Source: an uncultured Poribacteria bacterium
GTDB lineage: Bacteria > Poribacteria > WGA-4E > WGA-3G
Assembly: GCA_958295855.1 (NCBI GenBank)
Contig: OY282383.1
Coordinates: forward strand, 183,178 to 247,177
Direction of reading: 5' to 3'
Length of the DNA stretch: 64,000 nt
Of the stretch, positions 1 through 64,000 are shown piece by piece; position 1 is the stretch's first letter, and every line of letters begins with the position of its first letter. The position numbers and the translations under genes are program-made. The notes under the pieces were generated by a model. That model saw only the letters and a list, made by a program, of their open reading frames with translations. It had not been told where the DNA came from and did not search any database.

Positions 1-80
1 AAAAATGCCGACCCCGCGAGGCCCCAAAATCCGCGTAATCCGTGTAATCCGCGTAAATCCGCGATTCAGACGAGAAGTTG
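1..80. repeat. Direct repeat copy A (about 75 bp; AAAAATGCCGACCCCGCGAGG...CCGCGTAATCCGTGTAATCCGCGTAAATCCGCGATTCAGACGA), left flank of the Rpn gene
   Basis: Near-identical copy at 1372-1450; shorter CCGCGTAATCCGCGATTCAGAC units recur at 1451-1530 and 3564-3604. Confidence 0.8.
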
Positions 81-81
81 G

Positions 82-110
82 TTGACATGACCGGCCATTC
101 TTGTTATACT
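82..110 (+). promoter_or_regulatory. Sigma70-type promoter: TTGACA (82-87), 17-bp spacer, TATACT (105-110)
   Basis: Consensus -35 and near-consensus -10 with ideal spacing, about 45 nt upstream of the Rpn ATG at 158. Confidence 0.6.
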
Positions 111-157
111 ATTTGTCTATGACAAAAAATCTACCAAACAAAGGAGATAACAAACAG

Positions 158-1243
158 ATGACTATAGAAACCGATGCGCGCGACCTGCTGCATTTTCTGA
201 CTGTGTCGGTTGAACACTTCCCAGACAGGAGTGCGCGCAAGTTGCTAGAAAATAAGGAAAACGTGCGGGGGTTGCTACAAATCCTCGCCGGGGACCTCGC
301 CGGGCAGATAGATTTTAGCCGGCTTGTGTCCCTGAACCGGAGTTTTATCCCGGACATGCTGCGGGAACAGGAGTCGGATCTCGTTTTTCAGGTGCCGTTT
401 ACCAGTCGTGCAGGCACCGATGATGAAGTACTGATCTATATCCTGATTGAACACCAATCGACGGTAGACCCGCTGATGGATTTCCGTGTGTTGTTTTACA
501 TGGTGCTGATTTGGGATGCACAACGCAGAGAGTGGGATCGGGACGATGTGCCGCGCGGTAAGCGTAAGTTACGTCCGATTCTGCCGATAGTCTTTTACAC
601 CGGGGAGCGGCGTTGGGAGCTCCCGCTGTCTCTGGATACGATGATGGACATTCCGGAGGAGCTGTCGCGGTTTGTTCCCCGATTTGACACACTGTTTCTG
701 AACGTCAAGGGGACGGATGCATCGGTGCTCACCGAAAACGATCATCCGTTTGGGTGGTTGATGACGGTTCTTCAAAAGGAGGGTGCTTCGCCTGAGACGC
801 TCAAGCGCGCGTTAATAGAGGCGATGGTGCACTTAGATTCGCTGGATGCGGCGCAAGCAGGTCAAAGGCGCGAGGCCATCCTGTATCTGCTGTCGCTGAT
901 ATTGTATCGTCGTCCGACAGCCGAGCACCAAGAACTTGTGAGGGTTGTAGACCGGCATACGCCGGACATGGAGGTAGAAACTATGGCGCAGTCGATGGCA
1001 GAGGTGCTGATAGAGCGTGGCATGGCACGCGGCATTGCGCAAGGTAAAGCAGAAGGGGAGACAGCGGCCAAACAGATGGCCCTCCTCAAACTGCTGCGGT
1101 TCCGTTTTGATCCCATTCCGCAGGCACTGACCCACCAGATTCGTTCAATCCGAAGCCTCGCCTTGCTTGATGCGCTCTTTGAACAAGTACTCGCTGCACA
1201 GACGCTTGAGGACATTAACTGGCAAAATCACAACGAAGGGTAG
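158..1243 (+). CDS. Rpn-family recombination-promoting nuclease / putative transposase (Transposase_31, PDDEXK_7-like)
   Basis: ORF 101..1243. Start moved to the ATG at 158 (AAGGAG upstream) because the ORF start at 101 overlaps the promoter. The Rpn/YhgA-like assignment rests on overall similarity of the conserved N-terminal block (about the first 150 aa) as recalled from memory. Alternative start at ATG 119. Confidence 0.6.
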   Translation: MTIETDARDLLHFLTVSVEHFPDRSARKLLENKENVRGLLQILAGDLAGQIDFSRLVSLNRSFIPDMLREQESDLVFQVPFTSRAGTDDEVLIYILIEHQSTVDPLMDFRVLFYMVLIWDAQRREWDRDDVPRGKRKLRPILPIVFYTGERRWELPLSLDTMMDIPEELSRFVPRFDTLFLNVKGTDASVLTENDHPFGWLMTVLQKEGASPETLKRALIEAMVHLDSLDAAQAGQRREAILYLLSLILYRRPTAEHQELVRVVDRHTPDMEVETMAQSMAEVLIERGMARGIAQGKAEGETAAKQMALLKLLRFRFDPIPQALTHQIRSIRSLALLDALFEQVLAAQTLEDINWQNHNEG

Positions 1244-1372
1244 GCACAAGGCCTACCCCTACAAAACAACCTTAGTCCCGTAGGGGCGGGGTTTCCCCGC
1301 CCGATTGGGCGAGTAGAGACACATGTCGCCTCGCTGGGGCTAAAGGGTAGGCACAAGGCCTACCCCTACAAA
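1240..1372. repeat. Two copies of the hairpin GGGTAGGCACAAGGCCTACCCCTACAAAA (at 1240-1268 and 1344-1372)
   Basis: Stem GGTAGGC/GCCTACC. Related to the GGGCAGGCACAAGGCACTGCCCCTAC family seen throughout the window. Located just after the Rpn stop codon. Confidence 0.8.
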
Positions 1373-1530
1373 AAATGCTGACCCGCGAGGCACCCCAAAA
1401 TCCGCGTAATCTGTGTAATCCGCGTAAATCCGCGATTCAGACGAAAAAAATCCGCGTACTTCTGTGTAATCCGCGTAAATCCGCGATTCAGAAGAGAAAA
1501 ATCCGCGATAATCCGTGATTCAGATGGGCA
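1372..1530. repeat. Direct repeat copy B plus two additional CCGCGTAATCCGCGATTCAGA units, right flank of the Rpn gene
   Basis: Matches positions 1-80 with a few substitutions. Confidence 0.8.
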
Positions 1531-1671
1531 CCCGAACCCGTTCGGGAAACTTTCTCGCACAAATTGTTGGAAAACTAAATAATTCTATCGGTTTTCCCTT
1601 GATAACTTAAAAATTGTTGTTACTTTTTGTCGAAAAATTCGTTAAACCTTTTAAGAGAAAGGAGGCAAACA

Positions 1672-2560: not shown

Positions 2561-2566
2561 TATCTG

Positions 2567-3563: not shown

Positions 3564-3604
3564 TCCGCGTAATCCGCGTAATCCGCGTAATCCGCGATTC
3601 AGAC
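3564..3604. repeat. CCGCGTAATCCGCG (x3) ATTCAGAC repeat, same family as the Rpn-flanking repeats
   Basis: Direct sequence match to positions 30-76 and 1396-1530. Confidence 0.8.
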
Positions 3605-3610
3605 AATAGA

Positions 3611-3642
3611 GGTCACGGCACACGGAGTGTGCCTACTACCTT
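3611..3642. repeat. Hairpin module (GGTCACGGCACACGGAGTGTGCCTACTAC) overlapping the 3' end of the RM gene
   Basis: Same family as 14592-14702 and 47276-47392. In the gene's frame it encodes VVGTLRVP plus the stop codon. Confidence 0.8.
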
Positions 3643-6600
3643 AGGTAACCCTTCAATAACCTTCACCGTCTCTAAACTGACTGTGATTACCTGGCCAAGC
3701 AAACGGAGGATATACTCCCCATCATCATCGCGATTTGGGTCGTTGAGGATGCCGCTCCGTTTGTCTATTTTGACGCGGTACCCATCCACTACCCACTCCA
3801 ACGCTGAGCGGTTTCCTAACCGATACGCAAACACCTCCGCAGGGATGCCCGCTAATGTGAGGAAGTCGTTGTATTTCAACTGCGTTTTGTCTTTGGAGAG
3901 TTTCATTCTCTCTACCCGCCAATCTACCTGCATACCCGGCGTTTCAATCGGCTCGAGTTTGTCATATTCGGGCTGTGTCTCATAGTTGACGTGCAAATCT
4001 GCGAGCTGCGCCCCTGCCACCGCAAACGCCCAGAAGTCTTCGGCGAAGGGGATATGCGGTAAATCGCGCTTGAGATTTTCCTGATACCGCTCGCGATAGT
4101 CAGGATGGTGCAGGAGTCCGTAAGTATAGTGGAAGATGTCCCACTTGCTGATAGTGTTGTCTTGGTAGTGCGTGCGGAACTGCGCCAATGCCCACTCGGT
4201 GATGTTTTCTTGTCGGTTTGTGCCATCCTCATTGTAGGTGTAGAAAGGGAAGCATTGAGCACCACAACCTGGGCCTACAACATGACTATCTGTTAATTGG
4301 TTGCTCATAAGAATCATGAAAGGTTTTTCAGATCCTTTATCCGTTAGACAAATCACTTGATTTTCCGTTTCTGTCTCAGGTGTAGGAAAGATGGAGGGAA
4401 ACACATATACGCATTCGTTCATCATTCTATGAAAGTATAGGTGCGATTTTGTAAACGGGCGATAGAGTGAAAATCGCACATTTTCAGTTGAGAATTTAGC
4501 CAGTTTGCCCTGTCTCAAGTTTGACTTCAGGCTTCGGGTCCACTTGAGCTTCGTATCATCAATTTCTATAAAATCATTGACGTTGATGTTTCTGTCACTT
4601 CGTCGCTCCCATTTAGACACTTGCCCATTGTAAGTTTCCATCATCGCTTGCATATTTTCGGTAAGCGCCTTGAAATTAAAATTGTAAGTCCACGTGTCGC
4701 GATTCGTTATCACACCGAGGCTATAGGTTTTAAAAAGCGTTCCCTCCACATCCCCTTTGCTCGCCTTCGCCGCTTTGCTTCCTATCGGGATAAAGGTGTC
4801 AAAGTCGGAGTGAAGCCCTTCGGTGAGCCACGTATACCTTTTATCGGGTATCAACTCTTGCCACGCTACATCGCCTAAGTGCTGCTTTTCTTCCAAAAAC
4901 GCAAACGTCCGTTCTTTACTCCACACCGTCGTTTCACCGTTATAGAGAATTCGCACAGGCTGCCCTCGGTGCGGGTTTGATTTGACGAGGAGATTGATGC
5001 TCACCCCAACCTGAATCCCAAACACGTTGGAGTCCCCAGGCTGCCCTTTGCGGATGTTCCCACCTAAATCCAGAATATAGAGCGTGTCAAACTCATCGGC
5101 GAGATGGCGCCGCATGCCATCAAACGATCTTCCATCAATAAAACTGTGATTAGTGATAAAAACGATAATCCCTTCCGCTCCTAACTTATCCGTTGCCCAG
5201 CGGATTGCCTTGACGTACGGGTCATAAAGCGAATTTTTCAGTTGCGCGCTGGATGCTGCAGCGTACGTCGCGCGGACCCGCGCATCAACCGCCTCGTGCT
5301 GCCGATTCTTGTTGTTATCGTTTTCGTTTTTCTGTCCAGCATTGTAGGGCGGATTGCCAATGATAACAGTCATCGGTGTCGCTTTCTGCTCCTCAACCCG
5401 CTGTGTGTTTTCGGGCGTGAAATAGGCAAACTCCCCGGTTTCGTGCGGTGCATCCATCAGACCGAAGGTATCAAAAGTATCCACGAAGCAGATATGCGGG
5501 AACGGCTCGTAGGTGCCGGTTCTCTCAAAATAGGCGTGTTCAATGTTGAGACTGGCGATGTAGTAAGGGAGCAGCATCACTTCATTGCAGTGCAGTTCCT
5601 CGCGATATTTCTGCGGCAACCTTCTGCCCTGAATGTCTTGCATCAGGCGCACGATGAAGTTGCCAGTGCCGACGAACGGATCGATGATGTGCACACCCGT
5701 ATCTGATAGCGAACGCCCGAATTCTGTTTTGAGGAGATGCTCAACACTGTTCACCATGAAGTCCACAATCGGTTGTGGCGTATAGACGATGCCGTGTGTA
5801 TCTGCAACATCAGCGGAAAATCCCTGAAAGAACTGCTCGTAGACGGTGTTAAGGAAATGCTGTTTCTGTGAGTAGTCAGTGAGGGTCGCGGCGGTTTTCT
5901 CAATCGCAACGTAGAACGGATTCAAGGGACGGAGGAACTCGGAACGACTCAGGGAGCGGTGCGTGAGGATACGGATAACCTTCTCAATTTCAACGGCGAT
6001 GATGTTCCTGTTCGTAAAATCGGGATTGTCAAAGATGGTGCGAAAAATCCGCTCGGTGAGTAGGTGTTGGATGAGCATCTCCTCTACCTCTGCCGCAGTG
6101 AGGTTTGGGTTAATGGCCGCTTGGCACTGCCGATGGAAATTCGCAAACGCCTCCCGAAACGGGGGGTTATCTCGCCGCTCGCTTTGGATGCGCTTCGCGA
6201 CACCACGCCCAAGCACCGGCACTTTTTCTTTAAATTCTTCCACCGCTGCGTACCAATCGGCGATGTTTTCTTCCTGATACCCAAAGAAGGTGTCCAGCAG
6301 ATGGATAAGATTTTCCGGTTCGCTCACGTCTACATCAAGGCGGAGGGTGCCGTTTTGATAGAGGAGGGCATGGGTGGGCGATTGAATGATGATATTTTTG
6401 AACGGGTACCCGGCTTCCGATTTCTTCTGTGCTTCGGTGGGGAGAGCGTCTTGTGTATCTTTCGCTTCCCAATGTCCGTGTGGCAAGCCGAACGCATCGA
6501 CGACTTCGCCATCTAACCGGATGCGTCTGTTCTGTTTTGTGTGGCGTGTCTTTTCGCACACGAGAATGAGGTCTACCTGTCTGCAATAGTGTTGGAGGAG

Positions 6601-6720
6601 GTTTTGGAATGCGGTTCGGACAGCGCCTTCATGTTCTGCCCCGATTTTTGTGTATGCATCGAGTTCTGCGTAGTAGTTTTTGATTGGCTTGTGTGTCGGT
6701 TTGATGTTGAGTGCTGGCAT
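3613..6720 (-). CDS. Single-polypeptide Type IIL/IIG restriction-modification enzyme (MmeI-like): N-terminal PD-(D/E)xK nuclease plus gamma-class N6-adenine DNA methyltransferase
   Basis: 1035-aa ORF. D...EAK motif near the N-terminus, FxGxG motif I (DPFVGTGNF) preceding NPPY (GNPPYN), long C-terminal region consistent with a target-recognition domain. Confidence 0.6.
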   Translation of the reverse strand: MPALNIKPTHKPIKNYYAELDAYTKIGAEHEGAVRTAFQNLLQHYCRQVDLILVCEKTRHTKQNRRIRLDGEVVDAFGLPHGHWEAKDTQDALPTEAQKKSEAGYPFKNIIIQSPTHALLYQNGTLRLDVDVSEPENLIHLLDTFFGYQEENIADWYAAVEEFKEKVPVLGRGVAKRIQSERRDNPPFREAFANFHRQCQAAINPNLTAAEVEEMLIQHLLTERIFRTIFDNPDFTNRNIIAVEIEKVIRILTHRSLSRSEFLRPLNPFYVAIEKTAATLTDYSQKQHFLNTVYEQFFQGFSADVADTHGIVYTPQPIVDFMVNSVEHLLKTEFGRSLSDTGVHIIDPFVGTGNFIVRLMQDIQGRRLPQKYREELHCNEVMLLPYYIASLNIEHAYFERTGTYEPFPHICFVDTFDTFGLMDAPHETGEFAYFTPENTQRVEEQKATPMTVIIGNPPYNAGQKNENDNNKNRQHEAVDARVRATYAAASSAQLKNSLYDPYVKAIRWATDKLGAEGIIVFITNHSFIDGRSFDGMRRHLADEFDTLYILDLGGNIRKGQPGDSNVFGIQVGVSINLLVKSNPHRGQPVRILYNGETTVWSKERTFAFLEEKQHLGDVAWQELIPDKRYTWLTEGLHSDFDTFIPIGSKAAKASKGDVEGTLFKTYSLGVITNRDTWTYNFNFKALTENMQAMMETYNGQVSKWERRSDRNINVNDFIEIDDTKLKWTRSLKSNLRQGKLAKFSTENVRFSLYRPFTKSHLYFHRMMNECVYVFPSIFPTPETETENQVICLTDKGSEKPFMILMSNQLTDSHVVGPGCGAQCFPFYTYNEDGTNRQENITEWALAQFRTHYQDNTISKWDIFHYTYGLLHHPDYRERYQENLKRDLPHIPFAEDFWAFAVAGAQLADLHVNYETQPEYDKLEPIETPGMQVDWRVERMKLSKDKTQLKYNDFLTLAGIPAEVFAYRLGNRSALEWVVDGYRVKIDKRSGILNDPNRDDDGEYILRLLGQVITVSLETVKVIEGLPKVVGTLRVP

Positions 6721-14591: not shown

Positions 14592-14702
14592 CTCTGTCTG
14601 CTAACGGCACGCGGAGCGTGCCTGCTACTTTGTCTGCTAACGGCACGGCGGAGCGTGCCTGCTACTTTGTCTGCTAACGGCACGGCGGAGCGTGCCTGCT
14701 AC
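14592..14702. repeat. Three tandem copies of the hairpin module TGTCTGCTAACGGCACG(G)CGGAGCGTGCCTGCTACTT
   Basis: Stem GGCACGC/GCGTGCC with loop GGA. Lies between convergent genes and is terminator-like. Confidence 0.8.
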
Positions 14703-14722
14703 TTTGTCCGCCCCGAAGCCGA

Positions 14723-27176: not shown

Positions 27177-27790
27177 GATAGCAAGCTTTTCGTCATTCCT
27201 TGCGGAGTAATCAGGTTGCAAGACGCATCGCGCAATGCACTGTAGATCTCGTCGGAGGTTTCTGATGCCTTAATTGTTTGTAGGGGCAGTGCCTTGTGCC
27301 TGCCCTTCCCCTCCGAATCGCAACACTTTTACAAAAAAGTTGAATATTCCGCTGACATGTGGTAAAATTCGTATTTTCGTCATTCCTTGCGGAGAATTCA
27401 GGTCGCAAGACGCATCTGGCAATGCACTGTAGATCTCGTCGGAGGTTTCTGATGCCTTAATTGTTTGTAGGGGCAGTGCCTTGTGCCTGCCCTTCCCCTC
27501 CGAATCGCAACACTCTTACAAAAAAGTCGAATATTCCGCTGACATGTGGTAAAATTCGCCTTTTCGTCATTCCTTGCGGAGTAATCAGGTTGCAAGACGC
27601 ATCTGGCGCTGCACTGTAGCTCTCGTCGGAGGTTTCTGATGCCTTAATTGTTTGTAGGGGCAGTGCCTTGTGCCTGCCCTTCCCCTCCGAATCGCAACAC
27701 TTTTACAAAAAAGTTGAATATTCCGCTGACATGTGGTAAAATTTGCGGCGTAATGGCATTAACCCCCTGCAAAGCAGGGGCAAATACCCT
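27177..27790 (+). repeat. Three tandem copies of a composite unit of about 184 bp, then a palindromic element
   Basis: Tandem periodicity starting at about 27177, 27361 and 27545. Module order: TTTTCGTCATTCCTTGCGGAGTAATCAG; CTGTAGATCTCGTCGGAGGTTTC; GGGCAGTGCCTTGTGCCTGCCC; promoter-like TTGAATATTCCGCTGACATGTGGTAAAAT. Confidence 0.9.
27714..27742 (+). promoter_or_regulatory. Promoter-like element TTGAAT, 17-bp spacer, TGgTAAAAT (extended -10); promoter-proximal copy of three
   Basis: Identical elements at about 27346-27374 and 27530-27558. Oriented toward fumC. Confidence 0.5.
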
Positions 27791-29217: not shown

Positions 29218-29396
29218 TTGGTTGCAGGCTGTCGACATACTGCCCATCAGCCCCCCGCACCCCGACACAGGCAACAATGAAAAATTTTTTGTCGTGCCGG
29301 GGGACATGACGAAGCCGAATCTATAATTGGTTGCAGGCTGTCGACATACTGCCCATCAGCCCCCCGCACCCCGACACAGGCAACAATGAAAAATTT
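29181..29396 (+). repeat. Tandem duplication of about 108 bp spanning the fumC stop codon
   Basis: The segment 29181-29289 is repeated almost exactly at 29290-29396. The first copy includes the last 12 codons of fumC. Confidence 0.85.
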
Positions 29397-41039: not shown

Positions 41040-41739
41040 ACTCTGGTGGTGGGCAGGCACAAGGCACTGCCCGTACGGCGCAATGAAATCCCGAGAATAA
41101 AAAAGTTGTTTGCTTTTCGCGCACAACTTGGCTTGCAAGCTTCGCCAAAAAGTGGTGGGCAGGCACAAGGCACTGCCCCTACGGACGCGCCGCCTTTTAA
41201 CCTATTGGCAATAGCATAACAGAATATTATACACTATAATTAGGGGAAAGTCAAGAAAAAATGCATTTTTGTTATTCCTTGCGGAGTAATCAGCATAAGT
41301 AAGAAATAAAAAAGTTGTTCATAAAAATTCACAACTTGGTATGAAACCCCTGCAAAGCAGGGGCAAATACCATTGGCAAGACACATCCAGCAATGCACTG
41401 TAGCTCTCGTTGGAGGTTTCTTATGCAACCTTTCGGGCCAATGGCTGCCCGCCCACCCGTTTCCGTATTGTGGCTAAAAAAGGGGGTGCTTGTTTTTGAC
41501 GTTAATCAAGCTAGGGCATTTAGTTTTCAGTAGTTTTGAGTAAGGGGCGTGGTTGGGTGAGGATTAAGAATTTTCGTCTATGCCTAGTATTTTGATTGGA
41601 TTATGTGGTGTTAATGGCATTGGAGCTCTCGTCGGAGGTTTTGGTCTATGTCTAGTATAATGTGGTATAAAGGTTGACACACCACGTTAACTTGGTATAC
41701 TGTATTAAGGTACGGAAACCCCGTGCTACGGGAGACAAA
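41040..41739. repeat. Repeat-dense intergenic region (GGGCAGGCACAAGGCACTGCCC x2, palindromic element, CCCGCCCACCCGTTTCCG, GGGCATTTAGTTTTCAG, and others)
   Basis: Module families shared with other intergenic regions. Confidence 0.8.
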
Positions 41740-42270: not shown

Positions 42271-43574
42271 ACAGATATTATGAGAGAAACCTCACCGCTA
42301 GTCCCAGTGACTCGGCTGGAAGACAAGAAGGGTGGAAGAAGGGAAAAAACACCGCCCCCCAACCTTACTGTCTTCCATACTGTCTGCCATTTTTCCAATC
42401 TTCAAAAATACTAGTCTGTTGCATCATTTGTGCTTTTTGGTTAGTGGTATTTACCCCTGCTTTGCAGGGGCAGATACCCGGTCAAGGTTTTGCCGGGGCG
42501 CAATCGACTGAGTCACCCCGAGCGCGGGCGCGCGAGCTCGGCATCTATATCGGGAGCCTTCCTACCGGTGAGTACAACGCAATCACCGACGTGCCCGGGG
42601 TCAAAGTAGGACACGTCACCCTGAAGCAGGGGGAGTCAATTCGCACTGGTGTCACCGCTATCCTTCCGCGCGATGATATTTGGGAAGCGCGTCTGTTTGG
42701 CGCAGCACATACCATTCATGGCAACGGTGAAGCCACCGGCATCGCCCGAATTAATCAAGCCGGGTGGATTGAGTCCCCGATTTTGTTGACAAATACCCTG
42801 AGTGTCGGGGCTGTTCACGATGGTGTTGTCCGGTACATTGTCAAGCGGTATCCGGACAATAACATTGTGCTGCCGATTGTGGCAGAGTGTTACGATGGCG
42901 GCTTGAACGACATCAGCGGGCTCCATGTAACTGCACAGCATGCCATTGAATCCATTGAGAACGCCACCTCCGGTAAGGTAGCAGAGGGCAGTGTAGGCGG
43001 CGGTACAGGTATGCGATGCTACGGGTTCAAAGCCGGTATCGGTACTGCCTCGCGGGTACTCCCACCAAACAGGGGCGGATGGAAAGTCGGGGTACTCGTC
43101 AACGCAAACGGCGGACGACGACATCAGTTACGCATTGATGGCGTGCCGGTGGGTAAGGTACTTGATGATGCCCAGCAGAACCCAGGCAGGGACGGCTCGT
43201 TTATCATCGTTATCGCGACGAACGCGCCGTTAACGCATCGGCAGTTGAAACAGCTGGCGATGCGTGCAACGCACGGCCTCGCCCGCACAGGCACACCAAG
43301 CACAGATGGCAGTGGTGAGTTCGTTATCGCGTTTTCTACCGCCAATATTTTTCCACGCGGCACAGAAACAGGTACCTTTCACATCCAGATGGTAGTCAAC
43401 TCACGCTTGAATTCTCTCTTTCAAGCTGTCATTGAGGCAACAGAGGAGGCTATTGTGAATTCAATGACGATGGCAACCACAACCACTGGCCGCAACGGCA
43501 GAACAATGCACGCGATTCCATTGGATGGGTTGCAACAGGTGATGCAGCAGTTTTCGTCATTCCTTGCGGAGTAA
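42267..43574 (+). CDS. Peptidase family S58 / P1 (DmpA-like L-aminopeptidase / D-Ala esterase-amidase family)
   Basis: 435 aa with a DmpA/ArgJ-like fold signature. A palindromic element sits inside the N-terminal hydrophobic region. The C-terminal FSSFLAE* is encoded by a repeat module. Confidence 0.55.
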   Translation: MNRYYERNLTASPSDSAGRQEGWKKGKNTAPQPYCLPYCLPFFQSSKILVCCIICAFWLVVFTPALQGQIPGQGFAGAQSTESPRARARELGIYIGSLPTGEYNAITDVPGVKVGHVTLKQGESIRTGVTAILPRDDIWEARLFGAAHTIHGNGEATGIARINQAGWIESPILLTNTLSVGAVHDGVVRYIVKRYPDNNIVLPIVAECYDGGLNDISGLHVTAQHAIESIENATSGKVAEGSVGGGTGMRCYGFKAGIGTASRVLPPNRGGWKVGVLVNANGGRRHQLRIDGVPVGKVLDDAQQNPGRDGSFIIVIATNAPLTHRQLKQLAMRATHGLARTGTPSTDGSGEFVIAFSTANIFPRGTETGTFHIQMVVNSRLNSLFQAVIEATEEAIVNSMTMATTTTGRNGRTMHAIPLDGLQQVMQQFSSFLAE

Positions 43575-43826
43575 TCAGCATGGGTATGAAACCCCTGCTT
43601 TGCAGGGGCAAATACCATTGGCAGGATAGTTCTGACGGGCAGGCACAAGGCACTGCCCCTACAGTAGATCTCGTCGGAGGTTTCTGATGCAAGTTTTTTA
43701 ATGCTTAATTAGCAGGGAACACACTACAACTCATGTCGGAGGTTTCTGACGCAATGTTCGTAGGGGTGGTGCCTTGTGCCTACCCACATACTGGAGTATA
43801 TCGCGATTCGGACATCGCTCCTACGT
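43555..43826. repeat. Intergenic mosaic (TTTTCGTCATTCCTTGCGGAGTAATCAG, palindromic element, GGGCAGGCACAAGGCACTGCCCCTACAG x2, GATTCGGACATCGCTCCTACG)
   Basis: Module families shared across the window. Confidence 0.85.
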
Positions 43827-45953: not shown

Positions 45954-46097
45954 TTTTTTGTCATTCCATTAATTGGGTTTCTGCTCCGATTTTTCCGTTG
46001 TCAAAATCGGGTTTCTTACTCATTGTAGTGTGTTCCCTGCTAATTAAGCATTAAAAAACTTGCAATTGAAAATAGTGGCAAACATCGGAGCGCGCGC
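45954..46097. repeat. Intergenic repeat modules (GGAATGACAAAAAAA SD-bearing module, CATGCGGAAAAATCGGAGCAGAAACC-like, GTTCCCTGCTAATTAAG, CCACTATTTTCAATAGTGG-like)
   Basis: Shared with 50200-50550 and 57360-57775. Confidence 0.75.
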
Positions 46098-47102: not shown

Positions 47103-47275
47103 TCTTCGGACTGGCGACTCCTGCCTTTAGGTAGAAGAGGAAAGTCCGCCTCCTGTTAAATTCCCTTTTCAGCATGTGGTATTTAACTCTGCAAAGCAGG
47201 AGCAGATACCCTGTGCCGTTTTTGGGGAGTATACTACAAAAACAACTATCCTTCAAGCCCTAAATTGTACAAACG

Positions 47276-47392
47276 GGTCACGGCACGCGGAGGGCTCCTA
47301 CGACTTTGGTCACGGCACGCGGAGCGTGCCTACTACTTTGTGCCTACTACTTTTGGTCACGGCACGCGGAGCGTGCCTACTACTGTTTCCAT
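47276..47392. repeat. Tandem hairpin modules (GGTCACGGCACGCGGAGCGTGCCTACTACT x3, one degenerate) overlapping the 3' end of the DUF1156 gene
   Basis: Same family as 3611-3642 and 14592-14702. Encodes VVGTLRVP plus the stop codon. Confidence 0.85.
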
Positions 47393-50164
47393 CTGCTGTG
47401 GGGCACCCATCGCGGCAGAGATATACGGCCACTCTGTCACGAGGTTGTTGTACGCCGCAGCACTCGACGCATCGCCACGCACCTCATAGTACGCATACAA
47501 GACGCGCGCCAAACGTTTCGCAGACTCCGAATCGCGCATCGCACGCGCAACACCAGCACAGCCCAAAATACCACCGCTGTGCTCTACGCCCGATAAATGC
47601 CACATCATCCGCAGACACCCCTCCCACGCTGTCATCTCTTTTCGATTTTCACGCTCAGCGTATTCTTCCGCTCGCAACAGCCGAACCTTGCCGCGTGACG
47701 CGATGAGCACTCTGTCGTGCAGCGCGGCGATGTCTACATCCTTCGCTTTTGAAAGCCCCTCTGCATCCCCGAAGTTGCCCGCCATGTAGCCGTGCTGCTG
47801 CAACCACGTCAAACAGAACTGACTCTCCGCATCCAGTTCGCCTGTCTCTTTTTCATGATAGGCGGTGATTTCGTTGTTGATGTGCATGAGTGCCTCGCGG
47901 ATTGGCACAATCTCACCGCTGATTCGCATCACTTTGCTATAGCGGGAGTAGACCTCCATGCCGGGGCCGATGGCGGCTTGTGCTAAATCGACCGGCCTGA
48001 TGTTTGTGATGCGGGTGAGTCTGTCAAGTGCGGGTGGCATCTCTTTTTTCAGTGCTTGTAGAAATTCGTTGCGGGTTATGGTGGGGGCATCCTCAGGGCG
48101 CGGCCGACACACTAACACAACAGAGGATGCCAGCGCGTTTTTAGTCGCCTTAAGAGCTGTTGGCCGCTCTGTCCGCATTGGCCAGGTGCCGGTTACCTGA
48201 AAACCAGCGTTGACGATTGCCGTGAGCATCGTCTCCCAGCCGGTGGAGGTTTTTCCATCCTGTTCCTCTTCCTGCTGTTTGTAGGCGTAGAAAATGGATG
48301 TGGGAAATACATCTGTGCAGTGTTGTCGCATTTGCAGCAATGCCTTGCCGAGCAATTCCTCAAAGTGTTGTGTAGGATCTTTAAATCGAGGACTCGCGGT
48401 TATCTCCTCATCCTTTGGAGTCATCATGCCGGCAAACAGTTCGGTATAGGTATCGCGCAGAAGGGGTCTCAGCCAGACATAGAAGAACTCGGACAAATCT
48501 GCATAGCCGATATTATCGTAGTAGGGCGGATCTGTAATAAAAACAGGCATATCCTGAGCATGCGGCGTAGTACATACATCCGCCTGATACGCTTCACCAG
48601 TGTTCGCTGAGGTAGGGAACCTCTCAACAACCCTTGCAATCCATGCTATCTGCGCCAGCCAGTTTTGCGTTGAAGTTGAGAACGGATTTGCTTCAGCAAA
48701 ATCCCACATCATTGAGATTTTTTGCATGCCGAAAACTGGCATAATACTATTCCCCCCGGTGTCCCATATAGCGAAACTGGAACCACTCTCAGCGGTCCGG
48801 TCAATGGCAAAGGCAAGGTAAGTACAAACAGTTGAGGCGTATTCGGATTCTCCTCCATCTTGCAGGATAAGATTACGGACTTCTCCCAGAAGGTCTTTGA
48901 AAGTAGTGAGAGCCGTTAACTGACGTTCTGTGAAAAGTTGATGCCACTCTGTAAACCCATAATTCTGTATAGCAAAACCTAACGCTCGATGCGGCAGTTT
49001 ACCCCTAGGTTTCCACGTAGGTTGAACAGACTGGGCAGTGTGGATATGCGTATTCGCGGGAGGCACGAATATTTTGGGTTTACCGTCTGCGACTATCGCT
49101 GTCATTACCGCTCCCATCTTTCCTGCTTTCGCTTGTTCTCGGACATAAGGCAACTTGACAGCACTCCCGCACGCAAAGCAGTAGGCACCTGTTCGGCTGA
49201 CTGTAGGCTTCGGCACGCCTTCATTATCGGTTTGCACGACCCATGAAATCGTGTTGGATTCCCGGTCAACAACCGGCTTTGTCCAATGCTCATTACCTTT
49301 CTTTCTTGAGAGTTGGAAGGTTTTCATCAGCGGCATCTGGAGTCCACACGCAGGATTGATACACGGCACTGTGCGCGCCCAGATCCATGCCACAACCGTG
49401 GCAGTTTGCCCTGTGGGCAATTCCACGGGTGGATAGAGATGTCCGATGCGTTTGTGTGCTGCCGCGCGCATCCACGCCCCGTAGTAACGGATGTCGGATG
49501 CCAAGCCTGCGGTGCCTTTCCATGGCACACGCGTTTTCCTTTTACCTGTGCCGGTGAACATTCCCATCGGATCGGCATCAGGATGGACCGGTTTCTGGTT
49601 GTGAAACGTCGGGGGTAATTCAATCATCGCCTTGTTGAGCAGGACAGGCAGCGGATTTAGATCGGAGGCGCGGGCACGTAATCCCAGGCGTTGTGCCTCA
49701 AGCGGGATGGAGCCGCCCCCACAAAACGGATCATAGATTGCGGGGCAGTGGTCGCGGAGGTATTGTAGCACTGCATCGGGATTGTTTTCAAACCGCTGGC
49801 GACAATCCGTTAGGTCTTCGGCGTTGTTGCGTGCGACAGAGATGGCGATTTCACGGCGTGCCTCTGCCAAGAGGTTTTCATCGGTGCTATTTTTCCAGAG
49901 CACGAGTCTCCGGAGGAGGTGATGGAGTCGGTTTCGTTCTGCGTTCTGCTCGGGTTCGGTTGGGAATTCGTCTATGCATTCGGAGGGGTCGTCCACCATG
50001 CTGGCGAAGATAACGGCGCGGCATGCAGCGAGGGGACGACGCGCCCACCACTTGTGCAGTGTTGAGGGGTGTCCATGCGTCAGCGAAGCGTCTTTTGCAG
50101 ACTCTTGGTTGATATCTTGGAGGGGTATATTGACCTCAATGAGTTTTTTGCGGTAAGTCGTCAT
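47357..50164 (-). CDS. DUF1156-domain DNA methyltransferase (putative N6-adenine / N4-cytosine, DPPY motif); orphan, with no DUF499/DUF3780 partners nearby
   Basis: 935 aa. N-terminal HKWWARRPLAA motif typical of DUF1156. FITDPPYYDNIGYADLSEFF catalytic motif. Confidence 0.6.
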   Translation of the reverse strand: MTTYRKKLIEVNIPLQDINQESAKDASLTHGHPSTLHKWWARRPLAACRAVIFASMVDDPSECIDEFPTEPEQNAERNRLHHLLRRLVLWKNSTDENLLAEARREIAISVARNNAEDLTDCRQRFENNPDAVLQYLRDHCPAIYDPFCGGGSIPLEAQRLGLRARASDLNPLPVLLNKAMIELPPTFHNQKPVHPDADPMGMFTGTGKRKTRVPWKGTAGLASDIRYYGAWMRAAAHKRIGHLYPPVELPTGQTATVVAWIWARTVPCINPACGLQMPLMKTFQLSRKKGNEHWTKPVVDRESNTISWVVQTDNEGVPKPTVSRTGAYCFACGSAVKLPYVREQAKAGKMGAVMTAIVADGKPKIFVPPANTHIHTAQSVQPTWKPRGKLPHRALGFAIQNYGFTEWHQLFTERQLTALTTFKDLLGEVRNLILQDGGESEYASTVCTYLAFAIDRTAESGSSFAIWDTGGNSIMPVFGMQKISMMWDFAEANPFSTSTQNWLAQIAWIARVVERFPTSANTGEAYQADVCTTPHAQDMPVFITDPPYYDNIGYADLSEFFYVWLRPLLRDTYTELFAGMMTPKDEEITASPRFKDPTQHFEELLGKALLQMRQHCTDVFPTSIFYAYKQQEEEQDGKTSTGWETMLTAIVNAGFQVTGTWPMRTERPTALKATKNALASSVVLVCRPRPEDAPTITRNEFLQALKKEMPPALDRLTRITNIRPVDLAQAAIGPGMEVYSRYSKVMRISGEIVPIREALMHINNEITAYHEKETGELDAESQFCLTWLQQHGYMAGNFGDAEGLSKAKDVDIAALHDRVLIASRGKVRLLRAEEYAERENRKEMTAWEGCLRMMWHLSGVEHSGGILGCAGVARAMRDSESAKRLARVLYAYYEVRGDASSAAAYNNLVTEWPYISAAMGAPQQMETVVGTLRVP

Positions 50165-50551
50165 AGTGCTTTCTGCGCGCCCCTGAAGCCGGGCGGAGAC
50201 AGGGCTCCGCCCTTACAATTCAAAGCCATTTGATATGCGCCTGCGCGGGCAGGGCGGACCGCATCAGATGCGCCTGGTTTGTGCTCCGCGCAGAGTAATC
50301 AGGAAGTTTAACCACTATTGAAAATAGTGGCAAACGTCAGGATAGTTCTGACGGGCAGGCACAAGGCACTGTTTCCCCTACAGAGTAGATGTCGTTAGAA
50401 GTTTCTTATGCAACCTTAATTAGCAGGGAGTACTCTAGAACTAATAAGAAACCCGATTTTGAACCGGGTATCCGCCCCTGCTTTGCAGGGGTAAATACCT
50501 CATGCGGAAAAATCGGAGCAGAAACCGAATTGATGAAAGACTGCTTGTTAA
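50165..50551. repeat. Intergenic mosaic (CCACTATTGAAAATAGTGG hairpin, GGGCAGGCACAAGGCACTG, CCTTAATTAGCAGGGAG, palindromic element, CATGCGGAAAAATCGGAGCAGAAACCG)
   Basis: Module families shared with 46000-46090 and 57360-57480. Confidence 0.8.
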
Positions 50552-57359: not shown

Positions 57360-57775
57360 CAATTCGGTTTCCGCTCCGATTTTTCCGCATGAGGTATTAA
57401 CCCCTGCAAAGCAGGGGCGGATACCCGGTTCAAAATCGGGTTTCCGGCAAGTTTGTAGCGTGTTCCCTGCTAATTAAGGTTGCATAAGAAACCTCGGACG
57501 AGAGCTACTGTAGCGGCAGTGCCTTGTGCCTGCCCATCTACATCGTCAGAACACTCCTGCAACCTGATTACTCCGCAAGGAATAACAAAAAGACGAGATC
57601 TGCCACAACGTCACAACAACGAATAATTAAGCGTTAAAATACTTGCATAAGAAACCTCCGACGAGAGCTACTGTAGCGGCAGTGCCTTGTGCCTGCCCAT
57701 CTACATCGTCAGAACACTCCTGCAACCTGATTACTCTGCAAGGAATGACAAAAAACTCTGCAAGGAATGACAAAA
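57360..57775. repeat. Intergenic mosaic between fabH and fabD, including two copies of GAAACCTC(C/G)GACGAGAGCTACTGTAGCGGCAGTGCCTTGTGCCTGCCCATCTACATCGTCAGAACACTCCTGCAACCTGATTACTC(C/T)GCAAGGAAT(A/G)ACAAAAA
   Basis: Duplicate unit of about 110 bp at 57478-57590 and 57645-57758. The last copy supplies the fabD SD (AAGGAATGACAAAAATG). Confidence 0.85.
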
Positions 57776-58756
57776 ATGCAACACGCCTTTATTTTTCCAG
57801 GACAAGGTTCGCAAAAAGTTGGCATGGGCGCTGAATTGGCACGAACCTATCCAATTGCCGAGGACGTTTTTGATGAGGCAGAGACAGTTTTAGGCAGACC
57901 ACTACGGCAGCTCTGTTTCCACGGCCCTGAGGCAGAACTAAAGCGGACAGAAAACACGCAACTTGCCATTTTGGCCTGTAGTGTTGCAACGTTGCGGGTG
58001 TTAGCACAATTAGGGGTTGTGCCGAAAGTAGTTGCAGGGCACAGTTTGGGAGAGTACTCCGCGCTCGTGGCGGCCGGTGTCCTTGAATTTGCCGATGCAT
58101 TGCAGTTAGTGTGCGCACGCGCACACTTCATGGCAGAAGCCGGTGCCAATGGTATAAACCCCTGTTTACAGGGGCAAATACCACCGCAGAACGGCACCAT
58201 GGCAGCAATCCTCGGCATGGAAACGGAACAACTCCAAAATCTTTGTGAGAAAGCTAATGGTGTTGTTAACATCGCCAATTACAACTGCCCCGGGCAATTG
58301 GTAATTTCCGGAGAAGTTGATGCTGTCAACCATGTTATTGCGCTCGCCAAGGGTGAAATCGGCGCAAGACGCTGTCGCACTTTGCCCGTAAGTGGCGCGT
58401 TTCACTCACCGTTGATGGCACCTGCACAACAAAAGTTCGGCGAGGCACTGAATGCAGTGACGTTGCATCCGCCTCAAGTCGCTATCGCGATGAACGTAAC
58501 AGGCGAGTTTGCCACAGATGCAGATAATATCCGAAGCCTCTTGTTTCAACAGATAACGCAACCCGTTCAGTGGGAGAAATCTCTGCACACTATGGCGAAG
58601 GCCGGCATCTCACATTTTGTGGAGGTTGGCCCGGGGAAAGTCTTGTGTGGCTTAGTGAACCGGACGCTCCGTGGCAGCAGTACCGCACATATTGAAGATA
58701 TCGACAGTCTTGAGGTTTTTCGTCATTCCTTGCGGAGTAATCAGGACGCAAGATAG
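57776..58756 (+). CDS. fabD: Malonyl-CoA:ACP transacylase
   Basis: ORF 57767..58756. Start set at MQHAFIFPGQGSQ. GHSLGEYSA active site. In-frame palindromic element at 58151-58182. The last 12 codons come from a repeat module. Confidence 0.9.
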   Translation: MQHAFIFPGQGSQKVGMGAELARTYPIAEDVFDEAETVLGRPLRQLCFHGPEAELKRTENTQLAILACSVATLRVLAQLGVVPKVVAGHSLGEYSALVAAGVLEFADALQLVCARAHFMAEAGANGINPCLQGQIPPQNGTMAAILGMETEQLQNLCEKANGVVNIANYNCPGQLVISGEVDAVNHVIALAKGEIGARRCRTLPVSGAFHSPLMAPAQQKFGEALNAVTLHPPQVAIAMNVTGEFATDADNIRSLLFQQITQPVQWEKSLHTMAKAGISHFVEVGPGKVLCGLVNRTLRGSSTAHIEDIDSLEVFRHSLRSNQDAR

Positions 58757-59075
58757 CTCCCACAATACACTGTAGATCTCGTCGGAGGTTTTCGTCATTC
58801 CTTGCGGAGTAATCAGCATGGGTATGAAACCCCTGCTTTGCAGGGGCAAATACCATTGGCAAGATAGTTCTCACAATACACTGTAGATCTCGTCGGAGGT
58901 TTTCGTCATTCCTTGCGGAGTAATCAGCATGGGTATGAAACCCCTGCTTTGCAGGGGCAAATACCATTGGCAAGATAGTTCTCACAATACACGGTAAATC
59001 TCGTCGGAGGTTTTCGTCATTCCTTGCATGAGAAATCTCCGACGAGATCTGCCACAACGTCACAACTACAACCTT
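58717..59075. repeat. Tandem composite repeats of about 113 bp (TTTTCGTCATTCCTTGCGGAGTAATCAGCATGGGTATGAAACCCCTGCTTTGCAGGGGCAAATACCATTGGCAAGATAGTTCTCACAATACACTGTAGATCTCGTCGGAGG), two full copies plus partials
   Basis: Unit starts at 58717, 58789, 58902 and 59015. Confidence 0.9.
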
Positions 59076-59846: not shown

Positions 59847-59944
59847 TGGTATCTGCCCCTATAAACAGGGGTAAATACCTTTACTGATATAGCCCTAAAT
59901 CCTGCCTGTAAAAGGCAGACAAAGAGGAGATCAAATAACCGATT

Positions 59945-60181: not shown

Positions 60182-60322
60182 CGTCACATTTGACGTATGG
60201 GCAGTGCCACAGTTGCCAATAACCCAACGAAGTTGGGCTATTGCCTTGTGCCTGCCCGCAACTGAACTGGCAATTGCCCCTGCTTTGCAGGGGTTAATAC
60301 CACTAAAAAAAGGATCCGTCTC

Positions 60323-62244: not shown

Positions 62245-62280
62245 TGTAGGGGTAGGGTTTCCTTGTGCCTACCCTTAACA

Positions 62281-62318: not shown

Positions 62319-62342
62319 TGGAGGGCAATACGCTGAAAAAAC

Positions 62343-62371
62343 TTGCAATCTCCACTTCTATGTGGTATAAT
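62343..62371 (+). promoter_or_regulatory. Near-consensus sigma70 promoter: TTGCAA, 17-bp spacer, TGgTATAAT (extended -10)
   Basis: Reads into a 270-nt leader upstream of the Uma2 gene that contains only tiny ORFs. Confidence 0.5.
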
Positions 62372-62643
62372 TTACAACAAAGAGCAATGTTTTTTCCACG
62401 GGTCCCAACTATATGAAGCCGGTAAATATGGTTTTTCTAATCTCCATGAAGAGCACCGGAGTTACAAATAAAGGAGCCGCGTGAGTCCTGAATCAACAAG
62501 ACTTCGTAAGAGTTTTGTAGTACACGCTCAAAAATACGCTTGATACATAGACAAAAAATCAGGAATCTCCGACGAGATTAAAAATGCCATTACCACTACA
62601 TAACGCAGTCAACGCACTAGGCATAGACAAAAAACTCGCTAAG

Positions 62644-63153
62644 ATGACGGTAGAAGAATTCCTTGAAAGCGGCTTAGAGGGATATGAATACGTGAAAGGA
62701 GAATTAGTGCCGATGCCGCCTACCTCATTAGAACACGGGGATATTAGTCTAAACCTCCTTTTGCCTTTAGGTTCATATTGTCGTGAAAATCAACTCGGGC
62801 GTGTCTATAGCTCAGATACAGGCTTCCGAGTCGGCGAACGGGTACTGATGCCAGACATAGCTTTCATCTCAACAGACCGGCTTCCGACTGACCGGAGCAA
62901 AGCTTCCCCGGTTCCCCCAGACCTCGCCGTTGAGGTAGTTTCTCGGACAGATGCATTGCACAGTGTTGAGGAAAAAGCATTTGCCTACCTAGAGGCAGGC
63001 ACACAACTCGTATGGGTGCTTAAGCCACGGTCAAAAACAGTGACGGTGTATCGTTCGGAAACAGACATCACGCTGCTCACACGAAATGACACTCTCACCG
63101 GTGAGAATGTCATCAAAGGGTTTTCTTGTCGGGTAGCCGAAATTTTCCAATAA
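62644..63153 (+). CDS. Uma2-family (DUF820) PD-(D/E)xK endonuclease
   Basis: ORF 62584..63153. Its first 20 codons lie in a repeat copy, so the start is set at MTVEEFLESG. Family hallmarks: PDIAFIS...PDLAVEVVS...K. Confidence 0.6.
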   Translation: MTVEEFLESGLEGYEYVKGELVPMPPTSLEHGDISLNLLLPLGSYCRENQLGRVYSSDTGFRVGERVLMPDIAFISTDRLPTDRSKASPVPPDLAVEVVSRTDALHSVEEKAFAYLEAGTQLVWVLKPRSKTVTVYRSETDITLLTRNDTLTGENVIKGFSCRVAEIFQ

Positions 63154-63188
63154 TAGCAACCTTGCAAGCGTGCCAAAAAAATAGCGTG

Positions 63189-63226
63189 TTTTTGTCCATG
63201 CCTAGTGCGTTGCCTGCGTTCTGTAG
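63189..63226. repeat. Inverted copy of the 38-bp element (TTTTTGTCCATGCCTAGTGCGTTGCCTGCGTTCTGTAG)
   Basis: Reverse complement of 62281-62318 with 3 mismatches; together the two copies bracket the Uma2 gene. Confidence 0.85.
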
Positions 63227-63347
63227 TCTTAACCGCGTTGAAGATCTCGTCGGAGTGTTTTTACGCATTCGCTAATTATTTAACAACAACTTACTCATTT
63301 TCAAGTTTTCAATGCGTGCTGACTTTCTCCTAATTAATGGAAAAAAC

Positions 63348-64000
63348 ATGAACATCCACGAATACCAAGCCAAAGCAATTCTAAAATCTTACGGGGTGAA
63401 CACGGGCCCAGGCAACGTCGCTGAAACGCCTGAGCAAGCGGAAGCGGTTGCAAAGCAGCTTCATTGTGCCCAATACGTCGTCAAGGCACAGATTCACGCT
63501 GGCGGGCGCGGAAAGGGCGGCGGCATCAAACTCGCCAAGAACATCGCCGAAGTTAGACAACACGCGGAAGCTATCCTCGGCATGCAGTTGGTAACACCCC
63601 AAACCGGCCCCGAAGGAAAACGTGTCCGGAAAGTATTCATCACCGAAGCCGCTGAACTTGAGAAAGAGTTCTACCTCGCCATTCTGCTGGATCGGGAGAC
63701 CTCAAAACTCACTTTAATAGGAAGTGCCGAGGGGGGTGTCAACATTGAGGAGGTTGCAGCCCGAACCCCCGAAAAGATTATTAGGTTGCAGATTGATTCC
63801 GACTTCGGTTTGGTGCCATTTCAAGCAAGACAATTCGCGTATAGATTGATAACCTCTGCGCTATATCACGAAGTCATCCCCAAAGCCACCGAGCTCATTC
63901 TATCACTTTACGCTGCCTTTACCGCATGCGATTGCTCGTTAGTAGAGATTAACCCATTGGCAATTGTCAAGACAGATGATGGACTGGACATCGCCGCAAT
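63348..64000 (+). CDS. sucC: Succinate--CoA ligase (ADP-forming) subunit beta, 5' partial (continues past the window end)
   Basis: MNIHEYQAKAILKSYGV...AQIHAGGRGKGGG, the ATP-grasp N-terminus typical of SucC. Confidence 0.85.
   Translation, partial: MNIHEYQAKAILKSYGVNTGPGNVAETPEQAEAVAKQLHCAQYVVKAQIHAGGRGKGGGIKLAKNIAEVRQHAEAILGMQLVTPQTGPEGKRVRKVFITEAAELEKEFYLAILLDRETSKLTLIGSAEGGVNIEEVAARTPEKIIRLQIDSDFGLVPFQARQFAYRLITSALYHEVIPKATELILSLYAAFTACDCSLVEINPLAIVKTDDGLDIAA

Follow-up and report, generated by a model that had tools for sequence, protein, structure and literature searches.

GTAG-tagged hairpins and composite repeats between housekeeping genes of a Candidatus Poribacteria lineage: a probable strain-variable bloom of REP/BIME-type elements

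What fills the spacers between the housekeeping genes of an uncultured, sponge-associated Poribacteria bacterium, and how did it come to be there? The question is raised by a 64,000-nucleotide stretch of its genome (hereafter the window; GTDB lineage Bacteria; Poribacteria; WGA-4E; WGA-3G; assembly GCA_958295855.1, contig OY282383.1, positions 183,178 to 247,177 of the forward strand). The best named homologues of its FabD and RpoB belong to Candidatus Poribacteria, and a gene map built from Pfam and NCBIfam domain matches confirmed the housekeeping context (rpoB, rpoC, fusA, and fabH/D/G/F) that an earlier, sequence-only reading had described. That reading saw at least eight short module families recurring between almost all genes in varying orders and orientations, called the arrangement unusual, and proposed either a nonautonomous mobile-element system or a programmed role at gene boundaries. 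We think it probable, with weak points that are set out below, that the modules represent a strain-variable bloom of non-autonomous repeats of the repetitive extragenic palindrome (REP) and bacterial interspersed mosaic element (BIME) type in one species-level lineage of Candidatus Poribacteria. The phenomenon is thus not unusual in itself, as REP/BIME clusters have long been known in other bacteria (PMC3733652, PMC3333891); Poribacteria are a new lineage for this class, with some unusual features, and a literature search on Poribacteria and repeats returned no paper describing such repeats in the group.

The module motifs were found at or near the places where they had been reported, and in numbers above chance. 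Within the window, the arm of module D matched 22 times at ≤2 mismatches (0.06 expected), modules A, B, C, and E were present in 14, 13, 11, and 4 copies, respectively (0 expected for each), module G in 4 copies (3/4 exact; 0.01 expected), and modules H1, H2, and H3 in 2, 4, and 2 copies. Together with its variants, the C family reached 15 copies in the 64 kb. Self-comparison of the window gave 51 repeated segments (3.9 kb in all) with a strong extragenic bias: repeats accounted for 3,396 of 10,223 non-coding bases (33%) versus 532 of 53,777 coding bases (1%). The repeats are therefore real, but the statement that they occupy nearly every intergenic region was too broad, since within-window repeats touched 20 of the 38 spacers of ≥30 bp, with the highest density at 27–64 kb and only scattered copies at 1–27 kb. 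The tandem arrays described at 27177–27745 and 58717–59075 were recovered by Tandem Repeats Finder (27187–27743, 187-bp period, 3.0 copies, 95% matches; 58748–59027, 111-bp period, 2.5 copies), and the two copies at 57478–57758 appeared as B, C, and A each recurring at a distance of 163 bp. The same program found further arrays at 36060–36241 (101-bp period), 14595–14708 (37-bp period, 3.1 copies), and 47276–47340. For module F, the 22-mer originally reported occurs in full only once, but its 9-bp unit TCCGCGTAA does recur in arrays (28–63, 1397–1517, and 3564–3596). An Rfam scan of the window detected a tRNA-Pro only and no family matching the modules. A CRISPR array was considered and rejected, as the inter-repeat sequences are themselves repeated modules and no cas genes were found in the window.

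To which class do these modules belong? The core units appear to be short hairpins with an unpaired GTAG/CTAC tag, namely C (GTAGGGGCAGTGCCTTGTGCCTGCCC) with its variants C', C'', and C''', E (GTAGTAGGCACGCTCCGCGTGCC), S (GTAGGGGCGGGGTTTCCCCGCCC), and, less clearly, R (GTAGGAGCGATCTCCGAATCGCG). C, C'', S, and E fit the REP definition of an imperfect palindrome of 20–40 nt forming a stem-loop, in which the GTAG is left unpaired and is followed by a stem of 7–8 bp; their folding energies as single-stranded DNA (ssDNA) range from −7.7 to −10.8 kcal/mol (z −3.3 to −3.9), and the stem of C contains one bulged T. An unpaired GTAG/CTAC marks one end of the C family, E (as TACTAC or TGCTAC), S, and R, with two exceptions in the C family, i.e., a GTAC at 41051–41076 and the C' variant at 62246–62274, where the regular-expression match spans only part of the copy; R carries the tag on a weak fold (z −1.15). 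Compensatory stem changes were observed as well (GGGCAG/CTGCCC vs GGGTAG/CTACCC; GGCACGC/GCGTGCC vs GGCACAC/GTGTGCC). In other bacteria, GTAG hairpins are bound and cut as ssDNA by a single-copy HUH-tyrosine transposase, the REP-associated tyrosine transposase (RAYT, also TnpA-REP). The Escherichia coli enzyme requires a 5' GTAG and a non-complementary base in the stem, cuts ssDNA between C and T, including within CTAC, and has been proposed to diversify and tandemly amplify BIMEs (PMC3333891). The unpaired GTAG and bulged hairpin found here correspond to that requirement, which is why we read these hairpins as REP-type. GTAG REPs are also on record in the Planctomycetes-Verrucomicrobia-Chlamydiae (PVC) superphylum, Chloroflexi, and Cyanobacteria, and the literature also describes genomes with more than one REP family, REP clusters iterated together with the DNA that flanks them, and copies inside genes (PMC3733652). 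A strict census of perfect-stem hairpins placed CTAC fourth among flanking tetramers; this low rank arises because the census misses the bulged C hairpin and is dominated by D flanks, and we did not use it as evidence.

Around the hairpins, the remaining modules follow a grammar. Across the window and three sister-strain loci (L096, L102, and L110), they are collinear, with a constant order and mutual orientation that can be written as A-[T]-[D]-[sp]-[C]-B-[H2]-[C]..K-H3. A copy in L096 (9526–9831), at ~300 bp, is the longest, and the other copies look like partial or amplified versions of this form. Most of the supposedly independent families are hence parts of one composite with GTAG-hairpin units nested in it, and the impression of different orders and orientations was only partly right, because both are fixed within the composite unit. 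Neither A nor B folds on its own, and they are accordingly not REPs. D is a 33-bp palindrome (−17.4 kcal/mol, z −8.7); only four copies have both arms within 2 mismatches of the arm first given, and the second arm of most others is divergent (GCAGGGGTTTCATACC). In our reading, the arrays are a BIME-like composite that contains hairpins of the REP type and that arose through nested insertion, tandem amplification, and deletion. Its GTAG hairpins would sit inside a ~300-bp unit, A-T-D-sp-C-B-H2-K-H3, whose unfolded parts may be comparable to the non-REP linker motifs of E. coli BIMEs. As in BIMEs, REPs and non-REP motifs share a fixed tandem syntax, here in units of 187, 163, 111, and 101 bp. 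Regularly spaced REPs in alternating orientation were not found: C keeps one orientation per unit within arrays (27190–27788 reads A sp B C, three times), and its two orientations occur only in different composite slots, so that the arrays are BIME-like rather than BIMEs in the strict sense. Cluster growth may have involved the insertion of hairpins beside or within existing hairpins, and at 60198–60257 the loop of a C hairpin is split by a second hairpin of 35 nt. Clusters would also enlarge when whole units are amplified in tandem along with adjacent DNA, and deletion or recombination between copies would alter them. Tandem arrays in the window do take in DNA from their flanks, as is on record for large REP clusters (PMC3733652) and as modelled for the amplification of BIMEs (PMC3333891).

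Comparison of co-occurring strains revealed that these clusters differ even between close relatives. Exact look-ups of the window's FabG, DUF4416, and 100%-identical RpoB (P0121) proteins, and of a paralogous Rpn-like protein (P0253), gave no record, and the source genome was reached through the Rpn-like protein P0246 alone. In the ENA sample ERZ19489113, three further contigs match the window at 100% over 6.7–11.2 kb, and two sister genomes are represented by contigs of 5,509,395 and 3,984,061 bp, with most shared genes 97–99% identical to those of the window at the nucleotide level. Even so, no compared spacer is the same in all three of these near-identical strains, the differences being insertions, deletions, and changes of copy number at the scale of modules. 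In the window, L102, and L110, respectively, the S58–fusA spacer measures 252, 96, and 294 bp, fusA–ADH 144, 47, and 79 bp, rpoB–rpoC 404, 222, and 222 bp, rpoC–fumC 535, 232, and 233 bp, and fumC–aldolase 691, 829, and 819 bp. Alignment placed an 80-bp D+T block in L096 only and one C hairpin in the window only, and the copy number of the 111-, 37-, 22-, and 9-bp units varies between strains. A GCTCC-GA-GGAGC palindrome between fusA and ADH is intact in L102, carries 32 additional bp in its loop in L110, and 100 in the window. The search of related genomes for empty sites was also successful. Distant Poribacteria with the same gene order (84% FabD identity in a TARA scaffold and 75% in a 1.28-Mb contig) represent relatives of 75–85% FabD identity, in which the fabH-fabD-fabG gaps measure 0–77 bp, versus 407 and 352 bp in the window, and 21 kb of syntenic DNA contained no modules. 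Could the arrays instead be assembly artefacts, i.e., collapsed or chimeric repeats? They are repetitive and come from a metagenome assembly, but the same modules have unique flanks in three different contigs of 4–5.5 Mb, three further contigs match the window at 100% over 6.7–11.2 kb, and arrays of 0.2–0.8 kb are short relative to long reads (a long-read assembler being suggested by the ptg contig names); we regard an artefact as extremely improbable.

The strain indels and empty sites, together with the finding that the gene map of the window contains no transposase and no Y1_Tnp match, support that half of the sequence-only reading which proposed an active or recently active nonautonomous mobile-element system; with no transposase encoded in the window, the repeats are non-autonomous. 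Several observations weigh against a REP/BIME assignment. The main one concerns the RAYT, which was found neither in the window nor in the loci that were fetched (~0.75 Mb, of which most was covered), the latter being searched with a regular expression for the HUH...Y..NP signature over their open reading frames (ORFs). Beside C in 95 loci of other phyla, the recurrent genes belonged only to common families (PAS sensor proteins, ABC transporters) and included no transposase; as random REP sites, these loci are weak evidence of RAYT absence. Clean strain-indel junctions did not fall at obvious C-T cleavage or CTAC sites, and density is very uneven, with few modules at positions 1–27 kb of the window, in the 9 kb upstream, and in a 21-kb locus far from it. 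In addition, several modules are un-REP-like (A and B unfolded, R weak, D a long perfect palindrome without GTAG), and a pair resembling terminal inverted repeats around T-D-sp-B would better fit a miniature transposable element with inverted repeats (MITE).

This last point opens the main alternative, that the composite or its T-D-sp-B core is a MITE, i.e., an internally deleted insertion sequence with terminal inverted repeats, mobilised in trans by a DDE transposase encoded elsewhere, with the GTAG hairpins as later passengers. The imperfect inverted pair GCATAAG(TA)AGAAA / TTTCTTATGC bounds the ~150-bp T-D-sp-B segment in two copies, the strains gain or lack the 80-bp D+T block as one indel, and the internal order of the composite is constant. 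A MITE should, however, carry terminal inverted repeats and generate target-site duplications, and here we found only the internal imperfect pair of 10–14 nt; target-site duplications, which the sequence-only reading had proposed to look for, were not visible at any strain-polymorphic junction. The element is moreover always preceded by module A, with no independent insertion sites, its sub-modules are gained or lost singly (C alone, D alone, T within D), and a matching transposase was not seen in the fetched DNA. A MITE origin of the T-D-sp-B core is possible, and as an account of the system we consider it unlikely. One apparent C insertion with a GTAGAT duplication (57665–57700) was rejected because the copy is a tandem duplicate of its neighbour and the upstream sequence is unlike the empty allele.

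How far do the modules extend beyond the window? A 19-mer of module A had 4 matches among 241 million metagenome records, all in unrelated contexts of different GC content and without any other module, and module A is lineage-specific. In a sister genome, a 21-kb locus 4.2 Mb away contains one C, two D-like palindromes, and one small hairpin, and no A/B arrays, and the DNA to the right of the window (sucC, pgk, proS, and sucD in L096) is again module-rich. Given the C and D-like copies 4.2 Mb away and the module-poor 9 kb upstream, the modules appear dispersed genome-wide, with the housekeeping stretch as a hotspot. Phage carriage was considered too and is unsupported, since viral contigs contained matches to neither C nor D.

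Module C behaves differently from A in its distribution. The first 21 nt of the hairpin (GGGCAGGCACAAGGCACTGCCCCTAC) occur exactly in at least 95 stretches from at least 50 species-representative assemblies and at least 12 named phyla, i.e., Chloroflexota, Latescibacterota, Cyanobacteria, Bacteroidota, Desulfobacterota, Pseudomonadota, Nitrospirota, Acidobacteriota, Deinococcota, Campylobacterota, Cloacimonadota, and Patescibacteria, with Poribacteria in addition; chance alone would give ~0.27 matches, as calculated from 596 Gb read on both strands and 4^21 different 21-mers. Among the matches listed, C in other phyla nearly always terminates in CCCTAC, often has GTAGGGGCGAyCCCTTGTGGTCGCCC as an inverted partner or shows iterations of its 5' arm, and has none of the other Poribacteria modules beside it except for one D-arm match at one locus. 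In six unrelated genomes (L007, L045, L050, L054, L076, and L080), 3–4 head-to-tail iterations of the 5' arm (GGGCAGGCACAAGG or close variants) precede a single complete hairpin with CCCTAC at its end, and the whole C 26-mer occurs four times in L067 and three times with a 30-bp period in L003. A literature search with the C sequence returned unrelated primer matches only. We are doubtful that this cross-phylum hairpin, together with a composite that carries its own Shine-Dalgarno (SD) motif, exceeds routine REP biology. Identical C across phyla would point to one of two things, a REP-RAYT system transferred repeatedly between phyla or a conserved partner that constrains the sequence, and the SD motif may let the composite colonise and persist in essential operons (rpoB-rpoC, fabH-D-G, and fusA). 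[quoted passage not shown]

Contact between the modules and gene ends raises a further alternative, that the modules are boundary cassettes selected by the host as promoters, ribosome-binding sites, terminators, mRNA-stabilising hairpins, or protein-binding sites. On the sense strand of the genes, module A ends in ...CCGCAAGGAATGACGAAAA; it abuts the ATG of rpoC and that of fabD, with its SD-like AAGGAA 9–10 nt before these start codons. The true fabD start lies at 57776, which fits the 326-aa FabD (P0243) on a 5,501,248-bp contig carrying a 100%-identical RpoB. An A-like leader likewise abuts the fusA ATG in all three strains and brings the motif to the same distance, with other leaders in the 75–85% relatives. 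In the opposite orientation, A directly follows the stop codon of rpoC, and the S58 and fabD stop codons fall within it; owing to its overlap with fabD, FabD is longer in sister sequences (325–328 aa) than in most other Poribacteria (309–312 aa). D lies ~20 nt upstream of the fumC and fabF starts, and the 187-bp unit upstream of fumC contains a TTGAAT-17-TAAAAT site with a TG extension, which is thereby multiplied. Set against these contacts, the same boundaries are element-free in Poribacteria at 75–85% FabD identity, every compared spacer differs among near-identical strains, promoter-like (16 vs 14.5 expected) and terminator-like sites (21 vs 22.5 expected) show no regional enrichment, and no Rfam family matches. 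The empty sites and strain variability make a primary regulatory role unlikely, and we give host-selected cassettes a low probability; the programmed gene-boundary function proposed from the sequence alone is therefore not retained as the primary one. Secondary expression effects (SD replacement, promoter multiplication, and hairpins within operon mRNAs) are plausible judging from the positions of the motifs. For REP/BIME-type repeats, tolerance in essential operons could be explained if the terminal module A supplies the AAGGAA ribosome-binding motif before the downstream start, and the arrays would probably be co-transcribed, so that the mRNAs gain hairpins and, at one locus, promoter-like sites in several copies.

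The individual features are given here from left to right, on the plus strand unless stated otherwise. The window opens with the left copy (1–76) of a ~75-bp direct repeat that contains module F (9-bp units AATCCGCGT, then ATTCAGAC), which recurs at 1373–1450. The two copies bracket an Rpn-like gene (101–1243; Pfam Transposase_31, PD-(D/E)XK), whose family is large in Poribacteria (831 matches at E ≤1e-10). As a mobilising enzyme this gene found no support, a paralogue locus (L111) having no adjacent modules. Directly 3' of it, three GTAG hairpins with unpaired GTAG and 8-bp stems (1238–1369; z −3.6) consist of two C'' (GGGTAGGCACAAGGCCTACCCCTAC; 1238–1262 and 1345–1369) with one S (1280–1302) between them, followed by module F arrays (1373–1524; 51-bp period, 2.4 copies) with a copy number unlike that of the sister strain. 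At 3564–3639, a 9-mer array of TCCGCGTAA (3.7 copies, one fewer in the sister strain) precedes an E hairpin, GGCACACGGAGTGTGCC-TACTAC, with compensatory stem changes, and a type ISP restriction-modification gene occupies 3613–6720. The distance from this Rpn/restriction locus to the rpoB locus is 36 kb in the window versus ~440 kb in the sister genome s18.ptg000019c (L110 and L115), where synteny ends right after the restriction gene; on gene order, this indicates a large rearrangement between co-occurring strains. Downstream of aqpZ, a terminator-like hairpin is succeeded by three tandem units of 37 bp (14595–14708), each made up of an E hairpin and TGCTAC. On the minus strand, R (25155–25177, its motif read on the plus strand) and G (25267–25284) fall within the 5' region of the PGA_cap ORF, whose true start they probably precede; the Pfam domain begins at residue 103 of this ORF.

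The dense part of the window begins upstream of fumC, where three 187-bp A-sp-B-C units and one D, 20 nt before the fumC ATG, occupy 27187–27788. The units end in the promoter-like TTGAAT-17-TAAAAT segment, which a promoter scan called in units 1 and 3, and the sister strains have 819–829 bp at this site, made of another unit in which D is present. An exact 109-bp tandem duplication (29179–29396; 2.0 copies, 100%) containing the last 39 nt of fumC and its stop leaves a second, orphan fumC 3' end. Between fumC and rpoC, two small hairpins (TTAGCCCCAGCGGGGCGACA) are followed by a composite B-C-D-T-A whose end coincides with the stop codon of rpoC (29478–29752); L102 lacks these elements and has other content in its 232-bp spacer, and the L110 spacer measures 233 bp. 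Inside rpoC, module R occurs twice in frame (31116–31138 and 34377–34399), encoding VGAISESR both times, and alignment to L102 showed no gap around either copy. RpoC also has a 138-aa in-frame insertion (32198–32611, minus strand, codons ~1150–1287) that is absent from L102 and has Cys/His motifs reminiscent of an HNH nuclease (CEQCG...HVHH...CIGCH) and no Pfam match; the protein is 2,101 aa long in the window versus 1,946 aa in the sisters (L102 and L110). The rpoC-rpoB spacer (36060–36462) comprises an A-B-A-A-B array, whose first A abuts the rpoC start codon, then C, B, D, and an A remnant at the rpoB stop, while the 222-bp spacers of the sister strains lack the A-B array. RpoB carries a 37-aa insertion relative to L102 (QVRHDGEKGEEAKGQGGKQSGEHTNAEAILLVAHDGK; 37492–37602, minus strand) adjoining a 28-bp internal repeat (37445–37472 and 37550–37577), and is 89% identical between strains, versus 97–99% for flanking genes. 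Upstream of rpoB (41051–41465) lie two C hairpins (41051–41076 and 41157–41182), a composite A-T-D-sp-B (41266–41420), and module G (41448–41465), with a strong promoter-like site for rpoB at 41254–41226.

Around S58 and fusA, a full D palindrome (42446–42478, no strand assigned; also in L102) lies in the annotated 5' part of the S58 peptidase ORF and precedes the Pfam domain (from residue 104), which leaves two readings, a wrongly called gene start or a translated palindrome. The S58-fusA composite A-D-C-B-H2-B'-C'''-R (43551–43824) has the S58 stop within its module A; both sister strains lack ~155 bp of it (D through B'), and L110 multiplies an R+C''' unit instead. The A-like leader abutting the fusA start is followed by H3, K, H2, and H1 (45954–46064), the segment in which the GCTCC-GA-GGAGC loop is occupied. 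A D-like palindrome, missing from both sister strains, and an E hairpin array occupy 47190–47383. The adjacent DUF1156 gene (47357–50164) is ~85% identical to L096 and ~92% to L102 over the aligned part, versus 94–99% for its neighbours, and by this divergence looks like a fast-evolving or exchanged defence-type gene among housekeeping genes. In the DUF1156-htrA spacer, a composite A-remnant-H1-sp-C-B-H2-K-D-H3 (50290–50532) is replaced by two R hairpins in the sister strains. The fabH-fabD spacer is wholly filled (57360–57775): H3, starting 6 nt after the fabH stop, then D, K, and H2, and then B-C-A twice, with a 22-bp A sub-repeat in two copies up to the fabD start. L096 has 80 bp more here (D+T), one C fewer, and the 22-mer three times, and relatives have 0–31 bp. 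The fabD-fabG array (58717–59066) contains the last 13 codons and stop of fabD. It opens with A-B, continues with 2.5 copies of A-D-sp-B at a period of 111 bp, and closes with an inverted B pair; L096 has fewer units. Further right are a D-like palindrome between fabG and acpP (59848–59882, no strand assigned), the loop-split C hairpin followed by a D upstream of fabF (60198–60301), and a C' hairpin (GTAGGGGTAGGGTTTCCTTGTGCCTACCC) upstream of a Uma2 gene (62246–62274); L096 has no C' at that site but one between Uma2 and sucC, where the window has none.

What these arrays offer, above the routine, is the extreme turnover between co-occurring strains, a portable SD-like motif in essential operons, and a hairpin shared across phyla. 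With three near-identical strains together in one metagenome, the growth, nesting, and shrinkage of REP/BIME clusters can be followed as in a natural time series, and such turnover is still debated for E. coli and Pseudomonas. The arrays indicate that selfish repeats can fill spacers within the most essential operons, at the cost of replaced native ribosome-binding sites and altered protein C-termini (FabD and the S58 peptidase). They will also confound gene calling (false rpoB and fabD starts, spurious ORFs) and strain-resolved binning of Poribacteria.

Set beside bacterial MITEs (Correia/NEMIS, ERIC, RUP, and Nezha), the system shares non-autonomous units of 100–300 bp beside coding regions that are likely co-transcribed and able to supply expression signals, and differs in having neither target-site duplications nor clear terminal inverted repeats bounding the composite as a whole. 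Its resemblance to REPINs (REP doublets; PMC3116915) is seen in Chloroflexota, where C lies tail-to-tail with a second, different GTAG hairpin (the GTAGGGGCGAyCCCTTGTGGTCGCCC above), and in one Anaerolineae genome, where this doublet is flanked by inverted repeats; in the window, by contrast, C is mostly single within a composite rather than part of a symmetric doublet, and the identity of its first 21 nt across phyla departs from the mostly vertical inheritance described for REPIN-RAYT systems. With GTAG REPs and their RAYTs (PMC2817692, PMC3733652, PMC3333891), the Poribacteria modules have in common hairpins of 23–29 nt with an unpaired terminal GTAG/CTAC, GC-rich stems of 7–8 bp with a bulge in C and compensatory variants, an extragenic location, several families per genome present as single units, dimers, and tandem clusters, and an abundance that varies between strains; the differences are the host, the lack of a RAYT in the window and fetched loci, and the minor share of REP units in the repeated DNA. 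Finally, as in E. coli BIMEs, REP hairpins and non-palindromic linkers form a mosaic of fixed syntax that amplifies in tandem as whole units, varies between strains, and lies between genes of one operon. Whereas classical BIMEs alternate two REP types in inverted orientation across short linkers, the unit described here is ~110–300 bp long and mostly non-REP (A, sp, B, H2, K, H3, and T), combining one or two REPs with a separate 33-bp palindrome and an SD-like motif at one end.

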